Below, one piece after another: positions 3,597-55,085 of a stretch of 64,000 nt of DNA. The position numbers and the translations under genes are program-made. Every line of letters starts with the position of its first letter. Position 1 is the first letter of the stretch. Source of the DNA: Candidatus Latescibacterota bacterium (GTDB lineage Bacteria > Latescibacterota > UBA2968); assembly GCA_965207885.1 (NCBI GenBank), contig OZ242311.1, positions 5,216,001-5,280,000 on the forward strand. The letters are read 5' to 3'. Under the pieces are notes generated by a model. The model was not told the origin of the DNA. It ran no database searches and saw only the letters and a list, made by a program, of their open reading frames with translations.

Positions 3597-4424
3597 ATGA
3601 TCTCGACACAACACATTGGCCGGGTCGCGTACCTGGCCTCCTGTACCCTGATCTTCGCATTCTTAATCGCGCCAATTCTGGTGATCGTACCCCTGAGCTT
3701 CAATTCCGAACCCTACTTCACCTTCACCGAAGGCATGCTGCGCCTGGACGCCGAAGCGTATTCTCTGCGCTGGTATCGACAAATCATCGAAAACGAACTG
3801 TGGACGCGCGGGCTGATCAACAGCCTGATCATCGGCATCGCTTCTACCGCGCTGGCAACTGCGCTGGGCACACTCGCTGCGCTGGGTCTATCCAGCCCCG
3901 CCATGCCCGGTCGTCGCATCGCAATGGCGCTATTGATCTCGCCGATGGTCACGCCAGTGATCATCTCCGCGGCGGGCATGTTCTTTTTTTACTCAACCCT
4001 GGGCCTCGCACAAACCCACATCGGATTGATCCTATCCCACGCCGCACTGGGCACGCCATTTGTCGTAATCACTGTAACCGCTACCCTATCCGCCTTTGAT
4101 ACAAACCTGACGCGCGCTGCCGCAAGCCTTGGTGCCTCACCGATCCTCACGTTTCGCAGAGTACAACTGCCGCTAATCGCACCGGGCGTTATTTCTGGCG
4201 CGCTCTTCGCATTTGCAACATCTTTTGACGAAGTAGTAGTCGTCCTTTTCATGGGCGGTATAGAACAGCGCACCATTCCGCGCCAGATGTGGGCGGGCAT
4301 CCGCGAGCAAATCAGCCCGACCATCCTCGCCGTCGCAACATTTTTGATCGCCTTCGCCGTGTTGCTACTGCTCACCGTCGAATGGCTGCGCCGACGCTCC
4401 GCCACCTCTTCTCAAGCAGACTGA
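3597..4424 (+). CDS. ABC permease, PotC-like
   Basis: PLSFN, SLRWY, AAASLGA, FATSFDEVVV motifs. Confidence 0.9.
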   Translation: MISTQHIGRVAYLASCTLIFAFLIAPILVIVPLSFNSEPYFTFTEGMLRLDAEAYSLRWYRQIIENELWTRGLINSLIIGIASTALATALGTLAALGLSSPAMPGRRIAMALLISPMVTPVIISAAGMFFFYSTLGLAQTHIGLILSHAALGTPFVVITVTATLSAFDTNLTRAAASLGASPILTFRRVQLPLIAPGVISGALFAFATSFDEVVVVLFMGGIEQRTIPRQMWAGIREQISPTILAVATFLIAFAVLLLLTVEWLRRRSATSSQAD

Positions 4425-45621: not shown

Positions 45622-48072
45622 TCAGCACTTGAGGCGGGTCATCTGCGGGTCCCATAAGGGTTCGGAGGCGACCGTAGCTGGGAGAGACTCGCCAAAGTAT
45701 TCGATCTCCACATGGGTTCCCACGCGGGCGTGTTGCACCGGCAGATAGCCGTAGGCGATCCCGCGGTCAATGGAGTAGCCATAGTTGGCACTGGTGACAT
45801 AACCGCCTATGCGACCGTTAATCCAAATCGGCTCATTCCCCATGACCACCGAGTTTGGTGCGTCAAGAGTCAGGCAGCAGAGTTTTCGCGTCGAGCCTTG
45901 CACACGAGCCCTGACGAGAGCCGCCCGACCAATGAAGTCCCCCTTCTCCATCCGCACCGCAAAAGCAAGTCCGGCCTCCAGCGGATTGTACTCGGTGTGG
46001 AGTTCGTTGCCCCAAAGTCGATAGCCCTTTTCAAGCCTCAGAGAGTCAAAAGCCCCTAATCCAGCGGCAATCGCGCCGTGGGGCTGGCCAGCTCGCCAAA
46101 GTTCATCCCACAGGGCTTGCCCAAACTCGAACGGCGCGTAAAGTTCCCAGCCGAGTTCGCCGACATAGGAAATCCGCAAAGCAAGAACCGGAATCGCGCC
46201 GATGTCGAGATGCTGCGCGGTCAGGTAGGGAAATGCGCGGTCAGACACGTCGGCATCGGTAGTACGACGCAGTAGTTTCCGCGCCCTGGGACCCCAAACG
46301 CCTATACAACACCAGCGGCTGCTTTCGTCGGACAGAACAACTGAGCCATCTGTGGGCATGTACCGGCGAATCCACGCCTTGTCGCGCTCGGCGGTACTAC
46401 CCCCTGTGATGATGATGAATTGATCGTCGGCAAGGCGTGTTACAGTCAAATCGCACTGGATGCCCCCCTGTGGCGTAAGCATTGAGGTATAGGTAATACG
46501 GCCCTGAGGTTGGTCCACGCGATTGGCGGCCAAATAGTCCAAAAACGCCAGGGCCCCCGGCCCAGATACGCGAAATTTGGCAAATGGAGTCAAGTCAAAA
46601 AGCCCCACGCGCTCGCGGACAGCGCGGTGCTCTGTGCCGATGATCGGCGACCAAAAACGCGCCGCCCAGCCGCTGCGGGTGTGGCTGTGGTCGGTGGAGA
46701 CCGCGTTGGTCTCAAACCACCTGGGCCGTTCCCACCCCGCGCTTTCGACGAAGGCGGCTCCCAGTTCCCGATAGCGTTGGTGGTATGGGAGAAGGCGCAG
46801 GCCGCGCGGGGCGTCTATCGGCTGAGCCGGGTGAATGATGTCATAGACCTCGCGGTATTGCTGCGTACTGCGCTGGACGACGTAGGACGCGGTGCGCTGG
46901 TAGGGAAGAAAGCGGACGAGGTCGGCGTGGCGCAAATCCATGGTTGGCTGACCATTTGCCATCCATTCGGCAACCGCCTTGCCGACACCGCCAGCGTGCG
47001 TGATCCACACCGCCTCAGCCGACCAAAACCCCTTGACGTTAGGGGCTTCGCCGAGCACGGGCATTCCGTCTGGCGTAAACAGCAACAGGCCGTTGACCTT
47101 GCGGGTCAGCGCGGCTCGCCCAAGTGCCGGCAGCAATTCACCAGCCGAGATCATCCCCTCGCGGAAGGCCGCAGGCGACCAGGTACGCATGGAAGGCATC
47201 TCGGGTGCTTGCTCATGCGACTCGATATTCTCCGGCTCGACGCGCACAGGCTCGTGATCGTAAGAACCGATGATGTAGGCCTGGCCCTCCTGCCGACAGT
47301 AGATTGCCCGGTCCTGATGGCGGAGGATGGGATGCCGATGCTGCATGGTTTCCCCAGCGAGTTCGGGCAGAGGAGCTGTTTCGGCGTACAGGTGACAAAA
47401 AGGCACCAGCGGCAGGGAGACGCCGGCCATCTGACCGATCAGGCGCCCCCATATCCCAGCGGCGCAGACAATGGCCTCAGTGCGGATATGCCCGCAATCA
47501 GTGCGGACTCCAGACACGCGACCTCCAACCACGTCAATGCCAGTTACTGTGGTATTTCCATAAAACCTCGCGGCCCCACCAGCCTGGGCGTGATCGGCCA
47601 TAGCCTCGGCCAGTTGCCATGCCCGTGCAATGCCATCGCTGGGCGTGTACAGAGCACCGTAGATCGAGTCGGTCAACAGCGGGATTTTTTCGCGAACCTC
47701 GTCCGGCCCGAGCAAGCCGGTATCAATGCCCCAGGCCCGGCCAGCCCCGACCTTGCGCTTGAGGTCGTCGAACCGCTCGGGCGTCGTCGCGACTTCCAAT
47801 CCCCCGACCTCAAACCAAAATGGCTCGTCGCTGGATGAACTGAGGCGTCGATAGAGCTGGGTCGTCTCGCGTGCAAAAACAGACATCATGCGCGAGACAT
47901 TGACCTGGAAAACGAGGCCGGGGGCGTGGGAGGTCGAACCGCCGGTTTTGAACAGGGGACCCTTTTCCAGGACCACAATGTCCTTCCATCCCAGTTGCCC
48001 CAGATGATAGGCCACGCTGGTACCGGCGATACCGGCACCGATAATAACGACCCGTGCGTGATTTTGTATCAT
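45622..48072 (-). CDS. Dimethylglycine/sarcosine dehydrogenase-oxidase family (FAD + GcvT domains)
   Basis: IIGAGIAG, GSTSHAPG, FTPDG, AVWITH, GWERP, SYVGELGWE, LRLEKGY. Confidence 0.92.
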   Translation of the reverse strand: MIQNHARVVIIGAGIAGTSVAYHLGQLGWKDIVVLEKGPLFKTGGSTSHAPGLVFQVNVSRMMSVFARETTQLYRRLSSSSDEPFWFEVGGLEVATTPERFDDLKRKVGAGRAWGIDTGLLGPDEVREKIPLLTDSIYGALYTPSDGIARAWQLAEAMADHAQAGGAARFYGNTTVTGIDVVGGRVSGVRTDCGHIRTEAIVCAAGIWGRLIGQMAGVSLPLVPFCHLYAETAPLPELAGETMQHRHPILRHQDRAIYCRQEGQAYIIGSYDHEPVRVEPENIESHEQAPEMPSMRTWSPAAFREGMISAGELLPALGRAALTRKVNGLLLFTPDGMPVLGEAPNVKGFWSAEAVWITHAGGVGKAVAEWMANGQPTMDLRHADLVRFLPYQRTASYVVQRSTQQYREVYDIIHPAQPIDAPRGLRLLPYHQRYRELGAAFVESAGWERPRWFETNAVSTDHSHTRSGWAARFWSPIIGTEHRAVRERVGLFDLTPFAKFRVSGPGALAFLDYLAANRVDQPQGRITYTSMLTPQGGIQCDLTVTRLADDQFIIITGGSTAERDKAWIRRYMPTDGSVVLSDESSRWCCIGVWGPRARKLLRRTTDADVSDRAFPYLTAQHLDIGAIPVLALRISYVGELGWELYAPFEFGQALWDELWRAGQPHGAIAAGLGAFDSLRLEKGYRLWGNELHTEYNPLEAGLAFAVRMEKGDFIGRAALVRARVQGSTRKLCCLTLDAPNSVVMGNEPIWINGRIGGYVTSANYGYSIDRGIAYGYLPVQHARVGTHVEIEYFGESLPATVASEPLWDPQMTRLKC

Positions 48073-48107: not shown

Positions 48108-51100
48108 TTATGACGCACTTGTTTTCTCGACGAGAAACCGCACGGCCTGGCCCTCTATATCAACCGCATCGCCATCCACCGCATCTGCGCGAACCAATGT
48201 CGTACAGAGCGTCTCACCCATGATATAATCCCGAAACTGATCGAAAGCAAGAGCCAGAGAATTGCCATTATCCATATATGTCACTGCAATCCGATCTGAC
48301 ACATCCAGCCCCTTCTCCTTGCGGATATTTTGAATCACATGGACGATTTCGCGCGCCAGACCTTCGCGTACTAAATTTTCATCTCTGTGCAAATCCAGCG
48401 CCACCGTAATATCGCCTTCATTTGCCACAGCCATATCTTCTTTCTCTTCGCGCTGGATCAAAATATCATCCACCGTGAGATCTAAAGACTCCGCACCATC
48501 CAAATCCAATGACAGCGCGTGACCTTCGCGCAAAGATTGGATTTCCTCAAAGCCGAGACCCGCAATCTTCCCCGCGGCCACCTTCATATCTTTTCCCAAA
48601 CGCGGCCCCAGCACTCTGAAATTAGCTTTTGCAGAAAGCGTCACCACTGCCTCTTCATCGTCGCGAATATCCACGCGCTTCACATTTAACTCATCCGCGA
48701 CAATATCCTGTAACGCCCTGAGATCTTCGCGCACATCCTCCTGCATAGACACGAGAATCACCGCACGCAAAGGATGTCGGGTCCTGACATTGGCCTGACT
48801 GCGCAAGAACCTGCCCAACCCGACCGCTGTCCGCGTGTGCGCCATCTGCTGTTCCAGTCTCTCATCCAGATCGGCTTCGATCACATCGGGATAATCGCAC
48901 AAATGCACGGACTCCGGCATATCGCTCGCGCGCAAATTCCGGTAGATAGTCTCCGTGATAAACGGCGCGAAAGGCGCCAGTGCTTTAACCAGCGTCAAAA
49001 GCACGTGGTAGAGCGTCGCATAAGCAGACAATTTATCGCTATCATTATCGCTCTTCCAGAAACGCCGTCGGCTGCGCCGGATATACCAATTGGTCATATC
49101 GTCGATAAATGTTGCAAATCGCGTGGCCGCCGTCTGCAAATGACAGCGATCCAGCCCCTGTCGAATATCGCGCACCAGATGATTTAAACGCGCGCGAATC
49201 CAGCGGTCGAGCGGATGATCTGACCGATCCGACGTGGGCTGCCAGTTATCAACACGCGCATAAGTAACGAGAAAACTATACGCATTCCACAAAGGCAGCA
49301 GCACACTGCGCATCGTCTTTTGAACCCCCTGTTCTGAAAACGCGAGATCTTCGCCGCGCACCACAGGAGAAGACAACATATTGAGACGCAGCGCATCTGC
49401 ACCATACGTATTCATAATATGCATCGGATCGGGATAATTCTTCAAACGCTTGGACATTTTGCGCCCATCTTCCGCCAGGATCATACCATTGACCACCACA
49501 TTCTCGAACGGCGGACGGTCAAAAAGGGCAGCGCCGAGCACCACAAGCGTATAAAACCAGCCCCGCGTCTGATCCAATCCCTCAGCGATAAAATCCGCCG
49601 GGAAATGCGCGTCCAGCCACTCCTTGTTTTCAAACGGATAATGGCGTTGTGCATAGGGCATAGAACCGCTCTCAAACCAGCAATCGAGCACTTCGGGCAC
49701 GCGGGTCAATGGCCCCGTTTCACCCTCAATAATAACCGGATCCATAAAATGCTTGTGGATATCGTCAAACTTGCCACCCGTGCGTTCCTCCAGCTCGCCG
49801 ATAGAGCCAACACACACAGTCTCACCCGTCTCTTCATTTCGCCACAGGGGAAGCGGACAACCCCAATAGCGATTGCGGGAAATCGCCCAATCCCGCGCAT
49901 TTTCCAGCCAATTGCCAAAACGCCCCGCTTTGATGTGTTCGGGCACCCAGTGGATTTGCGCGTTTGCACGGAGCATATTGTCTTTAATCTTCTCAATATT
50001 GACAAACCAGGTCGAAATCGCCCTGTAAATAAGGGGCGACTCACACCGCCAGCAGTGGGGATAACTGTGATGATGTGTAGAGCGGTGAACGAGTTTGCCC
50101 TCTTCCTTTAAGCGATTCACAATATCGCTATCACAGTCCTTGACAAAACGCCCTTCGTAGTCATGTACCTCAGACGTAAAACGACATTCGGCATCAATCG
50201 GACAAACAGACGGAACGCCGTGAACACGACCGGCTTCGGCATCGTCTTCACCAAATCCAGGTGCCGTGTGGACAACACCTGTCCCTTCTTCAGTAGTCAC
50301 AAACTCGGCTGTAATAATGCGGAACGCCCCCTCCGCGCGCAGATCTTCAAAATAGGGAAAAAGCGGTTCGTATTGCAGACCGAGAAGTTCCTTCCCCTTT
50401 ACGGTCCTGACAATCTCGGGTCTTCCCGAGGGATAATAGGTACCCACACGCGCCTCAGCGAGAACGTACGTCACATCCTCATCTTTGACATACACATAAT
50501 CTATATCTTCATGCACAGTCATTGCCAGATTTGACGGCAGTGTCCAGGGCGTTGTCGTCCACGCCAGCAGATATGTATCCGATTCTTCTTTGAGTTTAAA
50601 CGCAACGGTAATAGCCGGGTCCTGCACCATCTCATAACCCTGATTGGCTTCAAAATTGGACAAAGGTGTTGCATCCCGGGGACAGTAAGGCAAAATTTTG
50701 TGTCCCTCGTAGATCAAGCCCTTGTCCCAAAGCTGTTTGAACACCCACCAGATAGACTCCATATAGTCGCGGTCCATCGTGCGATATCCATTTTCAAAAT
50801 CGACCCAGCGCCCGATTCGCTTGACGAATTGTCGCCACTCGGCAGTATAGCGCAAAACAATACCCCGACAGGCCTCATTGTATTCCGCAATCCCGTACTC
50901 TTCAATCTCACTTTTGCTATTCAAGCCCAGTTCCTGACTGAGCTCGTATTCTACGGGCAAACCGTGGCAGTCCCATCCAAAAACGCGATCTACGTATTTG
51001 CCATTCATCGTTTGATAGCGCGGGATCACATCTTTAATCGTCCCGGCCAGCAAGTGTCCGTAATGCGGCAAACCCGTCGCAAAAGGCGGCCCATCGTAAA

Positions 51101-51227
51101 AAACGTATTCGTCGTTATTCTTTCGGATCTCGAGCGATTTTTCAAATGCCCTGATCTCATCCCAAAAAGCGAGCACCTTTTCTTCCTCTTTGGGAAAATT
51201 CACATTTGTATCTACTTTCTCAAACAT
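48108..51227 (-). CDS. ileS: Isoleucine--tRNA ligase, type 2
   Basis: DGPPFATGLPHYGH, GWDCHGLP, ISRNRYWG, EGLDQTRGWFY, KMSKR; no C-terminal Zn finger. Confidence 0.97.
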   Translation of the reverse strand: MFEKVDTNVNFPKEEEKVLAFWDEIRAFEKSLEIRKNNDEYVFYDGPPFATGLPHYGHLLAGTIKDVIPRYQTMNGKYVDRVFGWDCHGLPVEYELSQELGLNSKSEIEEYGIAEYNEACRGIVLRYTAEWRQFVKRIGRWVDFENGYRTMDRDYMESIWWVFKQLWDKGLIYEGHKILPYCPRDATPLSNFEANQGYEMVQDPAITVAFKLKEESDTYLLAWTTTPWTLPSNLAMTVHEDIDYVYVKDEDVTYVLAEARVGTYYPSGRPEIVRTVKGKELLGLQYEPLFPYFEDLRAEGAFRIITAEFVTTEEGTGVVHTAPGFGEDDAEAGRVHGVPSVCPIDAECRFTSEVHDYEGRFVKDCDSDIVNRLKEEGKLVHRSTHHHSYPHCWRCESPLIYRAISTWFVNIEKIKDNMLRANAQIHWVPEHIKAGRFGNWLENARDWAISRNRYWGCPLPLWRNEETGETVCVGSIGELEERTGGKFDDIHKHFMDPVIIEGETGPLTRVPEVLDCWFESGSMPYAQRHYPFENKEWLDAHFPADFIAEGLDQTRGWFYTLVVLGAALFDRPPFENVVVNGMILAEDGRKMSKRLKNYPDPMHIMNTYGADALRLNMLSSPVVRGEDLAFSEQGVQKTMRSVLLPLWNAYSFLVTYARVDNWQPTSDRSDHPLDRWIRARLNHLVRDIRQGLDRCHLQTAATRFATFIDDMTNWYIRRSRRRFWKSDNDSDKLSAYATLYHVLLTLVKALAPFAPFITETIYRNLRASDMPESVHLCDYPDVIEADLDERLEQQMAHTRTAVGLGRFLRSQANVRTRHPLRAVILVSMQEDVREDLRALQDIVADELNVKRVDIRDDEEAVVTLSAKANFRVLGPRLGKDMKVAAGKIAGLGFEEIQSLREGHALSLDLDGAESLDLTVDDILIQREEKEDMAVANEGDITVALDLHRDENLVREGLAREIVHVIQNIRKEKGLDVSDRIAVTYMDNGNSLALAFDQFRDYIMGETLCTTLVRADAVDGDAVDIEGQAVRFLVEKTSAS

Positions 51228-51354
51228 TAAAAACTCCTATCAGGATCAGAATGGGCAGAGCCTGCACTGGAATGCCTCTATCCAGTGATGGAAGGATGAA
51301 CAGGATACCCCCAACCCCACCCATCTGGTTAAATGCCGCCCCAAATTGCTGCAC

Positions 51355-51387
51355 AAAAAAACCGCCACGGCAAACGCCCCTGGCGGT
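51355..51387 (-). terminator. Attenuator terminator in the ileS leader
   Basis: ACCGCCA...TGGCGGT stem followed by a U-tract, about 127 nt before the ileS start. Confidence 0.85.
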
Positions 51388-51410
51388 GTGTCATACAAAA
51401 AGTATATAGC

Positions 51411-51548
51411 TTAAGACAAACAACACCCCACAAGCGTCTCCGCGGCATATATACGTATAACCCCAATGGCACTGCCCGGTGTCAGATAACCTGTCACCTG
51501 GGCAGGACCCTTTCTCAGTTGTGGGGATGTTTGACGGGTTGTATTCAT
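51411..51548 (-). CDS. Putative ileS leader peptide (45 aa)
   Basis: MNTTRQTSPQLRKGPAQVTGYLTPGSAIGVIRIYAAETLVGCCLS*; all three Ile codons (ATT, ATA, ATA) within six codons; purine-rich RBS. Confidence 0.65.
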   Translation of the reverse strand: MNTTRQTSPQLRKGPAQVTGYLTPGSAIGVIRIYAAETLVGCCLS

Positions 51549-51578
51549 ATTTTCATCCTTTTCCTATCAGTGCGGTTA

Positions 51579-51607
51579 AAAATAGAAGTTTTGGTATTTT
51601 ATGTCAA
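51579..51607 (-). promoter_or_regulatory. Sigma70-type promoter of the ileS leader
   Basis: TTGACA-17 bp-TATTTT. Confidence 0.65.
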
Positions 51608-51615
51608 GCACTCAT

Positions 51616-52878
51616 CTACAAATCAGCAACTTCCTCTGAAACCCGTAGTCGCCGCCCCCTATCATCCTCCGATCTTGTAATTGCCCACGCGATCCAGCTC
51701 CATACACCCAACGCGCCCAATGCGACAAGCGGATATACTGATCCCGGTAACCGCCCAATATTGAAAACCCTGTAAGAAATGGTCCCCGCCAGTGCAATCA
51801 ATCCCGAAGTCATCCCCTTTGATGCGCGATAACCAAACGCATCGATCACTTCTTTTGCCCGGTACCTCGCATCAAACGAAAGCGGAATATAGAGCAACTC
51901 TTTTGCCGCACGAAACACCGAATAATCCAGCGTCTTAAACACCAGATAAGCCAACGCACCAGTAGTCAGAGTTGGATATACCAACAACACCCCACACGTT
52001 ATCAGATGAACCACCGGAATACCGAGATGGGCGGTTCGCAACGACACAAAATGCAGCAACAGGGGTGCAACACCAAACTGAAACACAAATGCACAGGCAT
52101 TCAACAACGCATAAAAATACCCCAAATAAGCGGTGCGTTCATCCTGTATCGGCAAAGCCGTCTCCACCAGCCCACTGAACCTCAAATCCAGCACCGCCGA
52201 CACCATCTGCGTCACAAAAATCAAGCCTGCGAGATAGCGCAAAGTTGGAATATCCCGAAACAAACCCAATGCCAGCTTGCCCCGCTTTTCTGGCTCCTGA
52301 ACTGGCACACCCCCCAGACCATAAGCCCACCACGCCAGAACGGCTGCTGGCAAAAGCGATAACCCTGCAAAAATCAACAGGTGTTCACTGCCTATCACCT
52401 TCGCCGTTTGCCCGACAATCAACCCCCCACAAATCGCACCCACCGACGCAATACCACAGATCGGACCATTGTACTTTCGCCCCTGATCATCTCGCAAGAC
52501 GCTATTGATAAACGACCAGTACTGTTCAATAATCAGCACAATATACGCTTCGCGCAGCACATATAACACCCCGACCGCCGGATGAAAACCAGATAAAATC
52601 CCCCCATAACACGCCAGAATACCCCCACCCGAAAGCACCGACGTCAAAAACAAAGTCTGCCGCGACCCAAACCGCGACAACAACACCCCATATCCCCAAA
52701 CCATACCGAACGTACCCAGAGGCGCCAGCGTCATAACAAAAGGCAAATTGTGCGCCCCATACGCCCCAATAAACAACGACGTGGATACACTCCGCACAAA
52801 CTCATATCCACACAACAAAAAGCCCGCTGCAAATCCGACCATCAACGCACCGGCAACAGGTCGCCTATCTATCGCCAT
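51616..52878 (-). CDS. NTT/TLC-like nucleotide carrier (ATP/ADP translocase family)
   Basis: About 12 TM; QYWSFIN, DYSVFRAAKELLYIPL, RYRAKEVID..GYR.SKG; ATG after GGAG. Confidence 0.75.
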   Translation of the reverse strand: MAIDRRPVAGALMVGFAAGFLLCGYEFVRSVSTSLFIGAYGAHNLPFVMTLAPLGTFGMVWGYGVLLSRFGSRQTLFLTSVLSGGGILACYGGILSGFHPAVGVLYVLREAYIVLIIEQYWSFINSVLRDDQGRKYNGPICGIASVGAICGGLIVGQTAKVIGSEHLLIFAGLSLLPAAVLAWWAYGLGGVPVQEPEKRGKLALGLFRDIPTLRYLAGLIFVTQMVSAVLDLRFSGLVETALPIQDERTAYLGYFYALLNACAFVFQFGVAPLLLHFVSLRTAHLGIPVVHLITCGVLLVYPTLTTGALAYLVFKTLDYSVFRAAKELLYIPLSFDARYRAKEVIDAFGYRASKGMTSGLIALAGTISYRVFNIGRLPGSVYPLVALGALGVWSWIAWAITRSEDDRGRRLRVSEEVADL

Positions 52879-52901
52879 TATTTTTCTCCGCACACTTTAT
52901 C

Positions 52902-55085
52902 TCAATACCACTTCCACCCTAAATCATAAACCAGACCGAGTGTCAGATTCCACCGATTGGCAATACCATCAACAGGCGTATTGCGAATTTTATTGACACG
53001 ATACAAAAAATTGTTCTGCTGTACAGACAAACTCAACTCGCCAACCAATGGAAAAGCGAGCGAATTATAATTCTCTAAAGACACCACATGCCGATCTGTA
53101 AACCCCGTAAAACTGCGCACCCGCGAGCGAAACTTTCCGCTGCCCAATGATCGCCGATAGTCCAAATACACTTCCGCTCCTATGTCATTTGCGTCAACCG
53201 CCAGATCGCGCTGTGCGCGGGCACCCAACCTGACGGTCAAGGTCCGCCCAAAACGCCGTTGAAAACCAGCACTACCGCGCAGAAGCCTGGGCCGCTGTCC
53301 CTCGACTTCGCGCAATGCGGTGCTATATCCCGCCAAAACAAAAGGATCAGCCACAGATTGCGTGCGATAGCGATATATCAAATCCGTTTCCAATTGATCT
53401 TCTGAACGCGTTAAATTGTCAAACGCCGTTCCAACTTGCCCAATCACCAGACTCTGATCAAGAGTAAGTAATTGTTTTCCCATATCTCTTACAACCATCA
53501 AATTCATCGCCGTATTCCAGGCCAGACTGGTCTTACCACTGAGAAATGACACGCGTTCTTTCTGCGCGCGATATGCAAGTGTTGTACCATCGATATAGTT
53601 GCGATTAAACGCGCCCTTGACAGTCCAATTCATGTGCCAAATTCCATTTGATCTCAGAGTGGCAAACTCGCGGGGAGCCAGCACAACCTGCGTATCTCGC
53701 AGTGCATAAACGACCATTTGGCGGAGCGGCATACCCGTAAACACAACATCTTTCCCTTTGCGAAACTCGCCATATCCATCGCCGCCATTCGCCAAAAATT
53801 CGACGACTACAACGCGATACAATTCGTTCTTTTGAATGGGACGTCCATTAATTGTATTTTTTCCCAAACCAGAAAAAATCAACCGCATTTCTTCTCGTGG
53901 CGCATTTTGGCTGCGTCGGAAAATGCTCAAAAGTTGCGCACCCGTCAGTCTCATCTTCACCAGACGGTCATCAAAAGGAATCAAATGATCGATATGGCCC
54001 ACTTTGAGCACGCGATTTGAAGGCACAAGCCCCAATCCTCCCCGATTGATAATACCCACCTCGCTATCCAAATATCGGCGCATCAGCCCCGTGACAGTAC
54101 GCCCTTGATCCCGATATGTCTTACCCGCAATCCGACCTATCCTCTGATTCGCGACCAGTTCGTATCTTTGCCTGAGATCGTTGACCAGCCGCTCTATCTC
54201 TGGGTCACGCTCCACAGAGCGACTCACTGGAATCTGCTCTGCCGAAACATCCACCACCTTCATATTGCCCTGAGTATCCGGCGAAAGGTGTAGCTCAACG
54301 CGACCAACAGACATCCCATTGCTCGGCGTGACGACCAGTGCCAGACCATTCACCAGACGGATCAGACTCGGCACCTGTAAACCGCGATCCAGATCGCTAA
54401 ATCCACCAGCGACAATCAGATCAACGCCCTCAACCTCGCGGGCAAAATTCAATGCACTCGTTTCATCCATATGCGCCAATACAATAACGCACTGCGCCTT
54501 TTTCTCGCGCAACACAACTGCCAATGAATCCACAACTTTGACGGGATCGCCAACCCTCAGACCCGACAGATGCCCCGGGTCAATTTTTTGTGCGACTTCT
54601 GGACCCAACACGCCGATAATCCCCACCTGAACACCGCCAGCCTTTACCATGGTATAACCCGGCAAAGGAGGCATTCCGCCATCTCTTCGCACGAGATTCG
54701 CCGCCAGCATTGGAAAATCAATTTCTTTTTGTCGCGCCTCCAAAATACCCCACCCCAAAGACAAATCGTGATTTCCCACCACCATAGCGGCATAATTCGC
54801 GCGATTCATCGCCGCACACATCGTTGCGCCCGCATCAAACCGCGACATCGCATTGGGTCCCAGAGCATCCCCCGCATCCAGAACAATCGCTGGCTCAGAA
54901 GTCTGCAATTTGCGAATCAACCCCACGCGCGCAGCCATCCCCCCGCGATCTCCTCGCCGCGTCAGTTGCCCAGACACATCGTTGCTGTGAATCACCGTAA
55001 GCCGTATATCTTCTGCACCCAAAGAAGAAGCGAACAAAAAACAAGCGAGGACGCAATAGATTCCCCACTGCTGCACCACGCTCAT
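52902..55085 (-). CDS. Degenerate 5'-nucleotidase (metallophosphoesterase + 5'-NT C domain) fused to a C-terminal beta-barrel
   Basis: HSND, DAGD, GNHD, AANL, INRGG, FLANGGDGY, then about 240 aa of amphipathic strands ending LGWKWY. Confidence 0.8.
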   Translation of the reverse strand: MSVVQQWGIYCVLACFLFASSLGAEDIRLTVIHSNDVSGQLTRRGDRGGMAARVGLIRKLQTSEPAIVLDAGDALGPNAMSRFDAGATMCAAMNRANYAAMVVGNHDLSLGWGILEARQKEIDFPMLAANLVRRDGGMPPLPGYTMVKAGGVQVGIIGVLGPEVAQKIDPGHLSGLRVGDPVKVVDSLAVVLREKKAQCVIVLAHMDETSALNFAREVEGVDLIVAGGFSDLDRGLQVPSLIRLVNGLALVVTPSNGMSVGRVELHLSPDTQGNMKVVDVSAEQIPVSRSVERDPEIERLVNDLRQRYELVANQRIGRIAGKTYRDQGRTVTGLMRRYLDSEVGIINRGGLGLVPSNRVLKVGHIDHLIPFDDRLVKMRLTGAQLLSIFRRSQNAPREEMRLIFSGLGKNTINGRPIQKNELYRVVVVEFLANGGDGYGEFRKGKDVVFTGMPLRQMVVYALRDTQVVLAPREFATLRSNGIWHMNWTVKGAFNRNYIDGTTLAYRAQKERVSFLSGKTSLAWNTAMNLMVVRDMGKQLLTLDQSLVIGQVGTAFDNLTRSEDQLETDLIYRYRTQSVADPFVLAGYSTALREVEGQRPRLLRGSAGFQRRFGRTLTVRLGARAQRDLAVDANDIGAEVYLDYRRSLGSGKFRSRVRSFTGFTDRHVVSLENYNSLAFPLVGELSLSVQQNNFLYRVNKIRNTPVDGIANRWNLTLGLVYDLGWKWY

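Follow-up and report, generated by a model that had tools for sequence, protein, structure and literature searches.

A putative leader-peptide transcription attenuator upstream of the isoleucyl-tRNA synthetase gene ileS in Latescibacterota

The DNA considered here lies directly upstream of ileS, the gene for isoleucyl-tRNA synthetase (IleRS), in a 64,000-nt stretch of a Candidatus Latescibacterota bacterium genome (GenBank assembly GCA_965207885.1, contig OZ242311.1, positions 5,216,001 to 5,280,000; hereafter the window). Coordinates are those of the whole stretch, and the leader, ileS, and the flanking genes that we list are all on the minus strand. The gene itself (48108-51227) encodes a type-2 enzyme of 1039 amino acids with matches to the Pfam families tRNA-synt_1 (5e-150), Anticodon_1, and DUF5915. 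Between it and the stop codon of the next gene upstream, which encodes a membrane protein (51616-52893), lie 390 nt that hold, in order, a promoter, an AAGGA box, a short open reading frame (ORF), a terminator, and a spacer. A sequence-only reading of the window had taken this arrangement for a leader-peptide attenuator standing in place of a T-box; every coordinate it gave was correct, and the interpretation it proposed holds in part.

A protein-level scan of species-representative genomes for IleRS yielded 80 loci. The four closest, at 94, 86, 84, and 81% identity, are all from metagenome-assembled genomes (MAGs) of Latescibacterota, and the remaining loci (≤64% identity) belong to Lentisphaerota, Verrucomicrobiota, Kiritimatiellota, Spirochaetota, and others. 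Together with the window, these four loci (L015, L002, L016, and L001) make up the five orthologs used for DNA comparison. An alignment of ileS leaders from relatives had been named beforehand as a check, and its outcome is positive: the whole module, comprising promoter, ORF, isoleucine (Ile) codons, stop position, pairings, and terminator, is found upstream of ileS in all four other Latescibacterota genomes, with some compensatory changes in the pairings. It is this conservation in relatives that lifts the observation above chance. Searching with the leader core (nhmmer) returned a single copy per Latescibacterota locus, directly upstream of ileS (E-values of 1e-52 to 5e-64), and none in the other 76 loci, 75 of which are ileS relatives from other phyla, nor any second copy in the window. 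Other nhmmer matches were set aside, since they had E-values of 0.02 or above and either their strand was wrong or their position had no relation to the leader. Flanking genes are common only to the window and L015 and differ at the other three loci, which ties the module to ileS and not to its neighbors. Identity of the leader core to the window is 0.95, 0.83, 0.82, and 0.71 in the four orthologs; the corresponding values for third positions of conserved four-fold codons in ileS are 0.81, 0.58, 0.50, and 0.36. Judged from these alignments, the leader is under stronger constraint than the synonymous sites of the gene it precedes.

The module begins with the promoter that the sequence-only reading had claimed (TTGACA-17-TATTTT). 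It matches 10 of 12 consensus positions and is the sole such site upstream of ileS between 50900 and 52000. Its −35 hexamer TTGACA (51602-51607) is kept in all five orthologs, as is the 17-nt spacing, and the −10 hexamer (51579-51584) reads TATTTT in four of them and TATGTT in one. The module ends with the predicted intrinsic terminator (51355-51387), a hairpin ACCGCCA...TGGCGGT at 51387-51361 followed by a T-run (U7) that extends to 51355. A terminator with U-tract is likewise present in all five orthologs, with hairpins of −15.2 to −18.8 kcal/mol (−17.7 in the window) when folded alone and tracts of U7 to U9. The 6 bp at its base do not vary, and the stem above them has been rebuilt differently in L002, L016, and L001. 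From there a spacer of 127 nt (51228-51354) leads to ileS, whose own Shine-Dalgarno (SD) sequence AGGAG is at 51238-51234. The spacer ranges from 69 to 235 nt across orthologs and cannot be aligned beyond L015. No sigma-70-like promoter is found between terminator and ileS in four of the five; L015 has a promoter-like 9/12 match that overlaps the T-run.

As a complete promoter-to-terminator unit of about 215 nt, the region could be read as a separate gene, for a small protein or a small RNA, that is transcribed independently and merely sits beside ileS, the ileS promoter being in the spacer. The match in L015 would agree with this, and gene callers do predict the 45-amino-acid ORF in many assemblies. 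However, the unit occurs only directly upstream of ileS and on the same strand in 5/5 genomes, even though the neighbors differ in three of them, and the spacer that would have to supply the ileS promoter is unconserved and in four orthologs has no promoter-like site. The substitutions in the ORF show no selection on the peptide, and the extensive conserved pairing with the terminator, both described below, would have no role in a plain gene. We therefore consider an independent unit quite unlikely. Still more improbable, to a degree that we give it very little weight, is that the hairpin and U-tract serve as terminator or insulator for the upstream gene (51616-52893), all else being coincidence. 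That gene shares the strand, stops 8 nt short of the −35 hexamer, and lacks a terminator of its own, but the hairpin lies about 230 nt past its stop codon and follows a conserved promoter, L002, L016, and L001 retain the module in the absence of the gene, and the leader is more constrained than ileS synonymous sites.

The ORF claimed for the minus strand, missed by an ORF listing, is present at 51411-51548 (45 codons plus TAA; MNTTRQTSPQLRKGPAQVTGYLTPGSAIGVIRIYAAETLVGCCLS). An SD-like AAGGA (51556-51560) precedes it, with moderate support: the duplex with the anti-SD sequence has −5.4 kcal/mol in the window and ranges from −3.9 to −6.2 kcal/mol across the five orthologs, whereas random 22-mers have a median of −2.5 with the 10th percentile at −5.9, and the SD of ileS itself has −5.9 to −8.0. 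The ATG is kept in 5/5 orthologs, the stop codon is fixed at one alignment column though TAA and TGA alternate there, and the sole indel within the ORF is 9 nt long and in frame. Of 46 columns, 14, 20, and 17 vary at codon positions 1, 2, and 3, respectively, so that there is no third-position bias; the excess of synonymous third-position change expected of a small protein gene under selection for its product is absent among the five sequences. The even spread of variable sites indicates that the peptide sequence itself is not selected. On this sequence evidence the lack of peptide-level selection fits a leader peptide, and fits an untranslated RNA equally well.

Homologs of the peptide extend the comparison further. 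When the five leader peptides were used as queries against 5.8 billion proteins, a word-indexed search found 27 further homologous peptides of 42–45 amino acids in public protein sets (known as protein sequences only), which together with the peptide of the window form a 28-peptide alignment. A profile built from that alignment and searched against 1.84 billion representative proteins gave only six matches at E ≤ 0.001: two known members, one new 42-amino-acid homolog, and three long proteins that we take as noise (E ≥ 1.5e-4).

The Ile codons are where the sequence-only reading had placed them. The ORF in the window has just three, ATT (51467-51465), ATA (51458-51456), and ATA (51452-51450), which are codons 28, 31, and 33 in the cluster ATT GGG GTT ATA CGT ATA (51450-51467, codons 28–33). 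All three are invariant in the five DNA orthologs, while codons 29, 30, and 32 change non-synonymously. The leader of L001 has a fourth Ile codon, and the family as a whole ranges from two to four. All 28 peptides retain I28, 27 retain I31, and 25 retain I33, with variable residues around these positions, and a distant 42-amino-acid homolog keeps I28 and I31 and not I33. AUA is the least used Ile codon, at 17% of Ile codons in 29 long ORFs of the window and 2 of 53 in ileS, and it is plausible from this usage that the AUA codons tie sensing to the tRNA-Ile2 pool. Both lie in a mini-hairpin over codons 30–34 recovered by RNAalifold and pair counts, however, so the choice of AUA may be structural. 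The underlying palindrome TATACGTATA (51459-51450, minus strand) is a perfect one of 10 nt that spans codons 31 and 33, and in L002 and L001 it is extended to GGATAT-G(T/C)-ATATCC with covarying flanks.

Characterized regulation of ileS elsewhere involves mainly T-boxes, and a scan for them had been expected to be negative, as it is in the window and in the four orthologous loci. At E ≤ 10, Rfam 15 gave only three chance-level matches in 50900-52000, none of them at the leader and on its strand, and no T-box, and at gathering score there was no match in the whole window. The T-box model at E ≤ 1 had no match in L001, L002, L015, or L016, nor did any Rfam family match the leader in these loci. 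The ileS leader is not a T-box. We also surveyed the 73 loci whose upstream sequence extends over 330 nt or more for analogous Ile-rich leader ORFs and found none convincing ahead of ileS; the terminator heuristic in this survey is a crude one that missed the terminator of L016. The one recurrent candidate, a conserved small ORF encoding MIIIQSSLIV upstream of spirochaete ileS (L010 and L013, about 3790-3860), was rejected because it lies opposite a divergent gene and is the complement of that gene's ribosome-binding site and start.

Base pairing in the leader was analyzed with RNAalifold and explicit pair counts on the five-sequence alignment, which, with five related sequences of which one is 95% identical to the window, speaks to compatibility and a few compensatory changes and is not statistical proof. 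The strongest signal comes from segment B (GCCGCGGAGACGCTTGTGGGGTGT, 51423-51446), which is complementary to the whole terminator region (T), in agreement with the claim of a segment at 51446-51423 able to pair over about 24 nt with that region. The B:T duplex has −42.0 kcal/mol in the window, against −23.1 ± 3.7 for dinucleotide shuffles (0/2000 as good), and −29 to −42 kcal/mol across the five orthologs. As a long hairpin it joins 51448-51423 to 51389-51362 through 24 pairs, with 91.7% of alignment cells paired and two pairs changed on both sides, and it is part of the minimum free energy (MFE) fold of the leader (−76.6 kcal/mol, z = −2.75, 2/200 shuffles as good). The alternative conformation combines the short terminator hairpin with pairing of the GGGG run of B to an upstream segment, A. 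Comparison of alternative structures was a second check named in advance, and both folds are compatible with all five sequences: each is 91–92% paired across the alignment, versus 35–54% when the partners are slid by 1–3 columns, and each contains five pairs changed on both sides. The palindrome TATACGTATA competes for pairing with the first nucleotides of segment B.

Segment A (AACATCCCCACAA, 51520-51532) has two alternative partners. It can pair, through 51527-51522, with 51465-51460 at the Ile28/Gly29 codons to form helix P1, which shows CG-to-UA covariation, or it can pair with 51431-51426 in segment B, where 90% of cells are paired across the five sequences. The A:B duplex in the window (−20.9 kcal/mol) is close to what shuffles give (−17.5 ± 3.5; 316/2000 as good), and the 1:2 pairing of the sequence-only reading, in which AACAUCCCCACAA sequesters segment 2, is thus not above chance there; the other partner of the upstream segment, at the Ile28/Gly29 codons, covaries better. 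Of the 1:2/2:3/3:4 logic of the trp and pheST attenuators that had been claimed for this leader, the 2:3 and 3:4 pairings exist, the 1:2 pairing is at chance level, and segment B differs from the scheme in covering both arms of the terminator.

Helix P1 closes hairpin H (51468-51509), a 16-bp stem with a small apical stem that lies inside the ORF, and the two together constitute the 5′ domain of the leader. H is a candidate pause or 5′-domain hairpin; 13 of its 16 pairs do not vary, and pairing is kept in 96% of cells. Its apical loop differs in L001, where a 3-bp stem is kept, and a role of the loop as anticodon mimic or operator was rejected on account of this change of sequence. By eye, the invariant 3′ arm of H (CTGACACCGGGCAG, 51485-51468) resembles the lead-in to the 5′ arm of the terminator (ATGACACACCGCCAG, 51393-51378); CTGACACCGGGCAG and ATGACACACCGCCAG could both pair with the GGGGTGT of segment B, which may have three alternative partners. 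Segment B for its part resembles a degenerate copy of the terminator (51445-51428, minus strand), with a similar CCGC...GTGG hairpin and then the G/T-rich run GGTGTTGTTTGTCTT, and a terminator scan also marks it as terminator-like. It could be a pause site or the relic of a duplication.

Such an RNA might act on the same terminator without being translated, as a structured cis-regulatory element whose P1-H domain binds a ligand, a protein (e.g., IleRS), or tRNA-Ile and whose ORF is a by-product. Several of the observations above suit this explanation, in that hairpin H and its 3′ arm are near-invariant at the nucleotide level, third codon positions included, the ORF has no third-position bias, the SD is weak in two of the five orthologs, and the Ile codons are in or beside predicted helices; an open frame is also no rarity here, and frame 3 is open too. 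What it leaves unexplained are the conserved ATG, the TAA or TGA stop at a fixed column, the in-frame 9-nt indel, and the pattern I-x-x-I-x-I with varying neighbors in 28 peptides, ahead of the very gene that charges tRNA with Ile. In addition, no Rfam family matches, T-box included, and the lack of conservation of the H apical loop in L001 argues against recognition of a loop sequence. We find an untranslated element of this kind, the main rival explanation, doubtful on balance.

We consider it probable, from features of sequence and their conservation, that the region is a ribosome-mediated leader-peptide transcription attenuator of ileS that senses the supply of charged tRNA-Ile. Five sequence features that characterize this class are found here: a leader ORF with ATG, a cluster of cognate codons, a terminator, an antiterminator, and a suitably placed stop codon, the last as judged from a model. 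From the features, their conservation, and the fit of both folds to five sequences, which are direct observations, we infer that the ORF is translated, that pausing and stalling occur, and in which direction regulation works, as follows. Transcription would start at about 51570 from the conserved promoter, and the 5′ domain (P1 plus H) would form. This hairpin ahead of the Ile codons could be a pause site, and it may hold RNA polymerase near them until the ribosome translating the leader melts it. When Ile-tRNA is ample, the ribosome would reach the stop codon (51413-51411) and cover the 3′ half of segment B, leaving the 5′ arm of the terminator free, and the short hairpin with U7 would end transcription. 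When Ile-tRNA is scarce, the ribosome would linger on Ile codons 28, 31, and 33, the 3′ half of B would pair with the terminator 5′ arm, and polymerase would continue into ileS.

Modeled ribosome positions are consistent with parts of this scheme. The stop codon lies 10 nt past segment B, and with it in the A site the probability that the terminator 5′ arm is sequestered is 0.06–0.38, the terminator hairpin alone remaining in the MFE fold in 5/5 orthologs. When the A site holds the last Ile codon, eight of the nine nucleotides in the 5′ part of B (B-5′) are masked in all five orthologs, and the terminator 5′ arm is already paired upstream (P = 0.82–0.86).

Other results weigh against an attenuator of this type, or at least against its plain form. 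Some concern the evidence for a translated leader. The comparative DNA sample is small, at five sequences; an open frame this long arises in 9–13% of shuffles, and frame 3 is stop-free as well in four of the five orthologs. The SD of the leader ORF is moderate, and weak in L016 and L001. Three Ile codons are fewer than in most textbook leaders, and their occurrence within six residues has a P of about 0.03 by peptide shuffling and about 0.07 from the genomic Ile frequency; threonine (Thr) is also clustered, at the N-terminus of the peptide. No synonymous Ile-codon change is seen among the five DNA sequences, so the invariance of ATT and ATA could be at the RNA level, and indeed the ATT adjoins helix P1 and both ATA codons are inside the palindromic mini-hairpin with its covarying flanks. 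Hairpin H, finally, is conserved at the sequence level beyond what a pause hairpin would need, with two uncompensated changes in its 5′ arm.

The remaining difficulties concern the switch itself, and they begin with the pairing of segment B to both arms of the terminator. The long B:T hairpin ends at the last G before the U-tract in L002, L016, and L001, and within 1–2 nt of it in the window and L015. What matters in intrinsic termination is that a helix closes on the RNA just upstream of the U-tract, and we infer from this that the complete B:T hairpin is able to terminate by itself. Since B complements the terminator 3′ arm up to the U-tract, a leader free of ribosomes probably still terminates, through the long hairpin. 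In the model, moreover, the terminator 3′ arm is paired at equilibrium (P ≥ 0.68) for every ribosome position, so that any read-through must depend on kinetics or on gating by the ribosome. When the ribosome is placed on the last Ile codon, only two of the five orthologs have the antiterminator as their MFE fold; in the other three it is 2–5 kcal/mol worse than the terminator fold, and there, too, any effect must be kinetic. We accordingly rejected equilibrium folding as a predictor of read-through, with the 3′ arm always paired and the terminator fold being the MFE in 3/5 orthologs at that position.

Read-through would be best explained if the front edge of the ribosome masks the 5′ half of segment B, with the last Ile codon or one nearby in the A site; on these models, a ribosome halted at the last Ile codon may be required for it. 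Stalling at Ile28, the best conserved of the three, masks 0/9 B-5′ nucleotides and would give no read-through in a gated arrangement. Under the classical reading, with B as a plain antiterminator, all three Ile codons are usable, but the geometry at the U-tract is ignored. As a tentative variant, to which we would not commit, the models allow a position-gated, "band-pass" attenuator in which two terminating hairpins have a single 3′ arm in common. If segment B carries no ribosome, or if the ribosome is stuck early (e.g., at Ile28 in total Ile starvation), the long B:T hairpin would terminate; with the ribosome at the stop codon, the short hairpin would; and read-through would occur only when a ribosome stays at the last Ile codons and masks B-5′ while the 3′ part of B holds the terminator 5′ arm. 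Speaking against such gating is the fact that Ile33 is the least conserved of the three Ile codons. If it is true, ileS would be induced by mild shortage of Ile-tRNA, including the AUA-reading tRNA-Ile2, and not when translation is lacking or fully arrested, and the usual 1:2 hairpin would be dispensable.

Several further observations were made at the locus. The IleRS is of the type-2 ("eukaryote-like") form with a C-terminal DUF5915. Its next-nearest relatives (≤64% identity) are found in Lentisphaerota, Verrucomicrobiota, and Spirochaetota, which are not the phyla usually grouped with Latescibacterota, and this distribution hints at horizontal spread of ileS2. Directly downstream of ileS, 45622-48072 (minus strand) encodes an 816-amino-acid fusion of an FAD oxidoreductase (DAO) and a GCV_T aminomethyltransferase domain, of the dimethylglycine/sarcosine dehydrogenase type; this neighbor is kept only in L015. 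The upstream gene (51616-52893, minus strand; 425 amino acids) has a weak and partial Pfam match to the TLC ATP/ADP transporter (E = 2e-8, residues 295-362), and further upstream, 52902-55085 (minus strand) encodes a 5′-nucleotidase/metallophosphoesterase of 727 amino acids. No tRNA genes were found in the 64,000-nt window. In L016, the 235-nt spacer between terminator and ileS (3766-4000 of that locus) contains a direct duplication of about 85 nt, in two copies of the form ...CTTGGGCGGTGGC[A/G]GGGTTGCCTC...CCCGTCTTACCTCTCACT; TRF reports only a 14-nt-period array there (3945-3982).

Attenuators that sense the amino acid of the synthetase they control have precedents. Such control is established or predicted for pheST in gamma-proteobacteria, where the attenuator of Escherichia coli uses the pheM leader peptide. 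In Streptomyces, trpS and leuS are reported to have classical leader-peptide attenuators (PMC1262725), and hisS paralogs in bacilli an upstream His leader peptide (PMC2965389); for ileS of Actinobacteria, the former source reports T-boxes (translational) and not leader peptides (PMC1262725). As in the pheST, trpS/leuS, and hisS leaders, the synthetase gene here stands behind a short ORF rich in codons for its own amino acid, and a terminator with a competing pairing would respond to the position of a ribosome in place of a T-box. The present case differs from them in the amino acid sensed (Ile), the gene (ileS), the host (Latescibacterota), and the lack of relation to any Rfam family, and also in its longer leader (45 codons) with only three Ile codons. 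In trp and pheST, segment 4 stays free, whereas here the competing strand covers both terminator arms.

Sensing of Ile-tRNA through leader codons, with a terminator set against an antiterminator, is found in the ilvGMEDA, ilvBN, and thr leaders of Enterobacteria. Those leaders control operons for biosynthesis, and their Ile codons are accompanied by codons for Val/Leu or Thr; in the present leader only Ile is clustered near the switch, and the target is a synthetase. The ileS T-boxes of Bacillota and Actinomycetota share with the leader both target gene and signal, the charging of tRNA-Ile, and transcriptional T-boxes also switch between terminator and antiterminator, but T-boxes bind the tRNA directly, and here sensing would be done by the translating ribosome. 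The leu leader of Salmonella uses rare CUA codons. Two of the three Ile codons here are AUA, at 17% the rarest of its synonymous set, which parallels the sharpened sensitivity obtained in the leu leader with the rarest synonymous codon, except that the AUA codons are also part of the palindromic mini-hairpin. Our search of the full-text literature found no leader-peptide attenuator for ileS and none for Latescibacterota; subscription journals fall mostly outside what was searched, and absence from print is uncertain to that extent.

Control of synthetase genes has been well mapped in few phyla, by T-boxes in Bacillota and Actinomycetota and by leader peptides in the cases of pheST, trpS, leuS, and hisS. 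The general picture of attenuation is unchanged by the leader described here, which would be a conserved case, not described before, of a classical mechanism and is unusual in one feature of its structure. If confirmed, it would provide a natural case of a competing strand that extends over both arms of a terminator, with bearing on what makes hairpins terminate, and a compact Ile-sensing part suited to testing in a laboratory host. For Latescibacterota, which in this analysis are seen only as MAGs, confirmation would mean that a distant uncultured lineage uses ribosome-mediated attenuation where other phyla control the same gene with a T-box.

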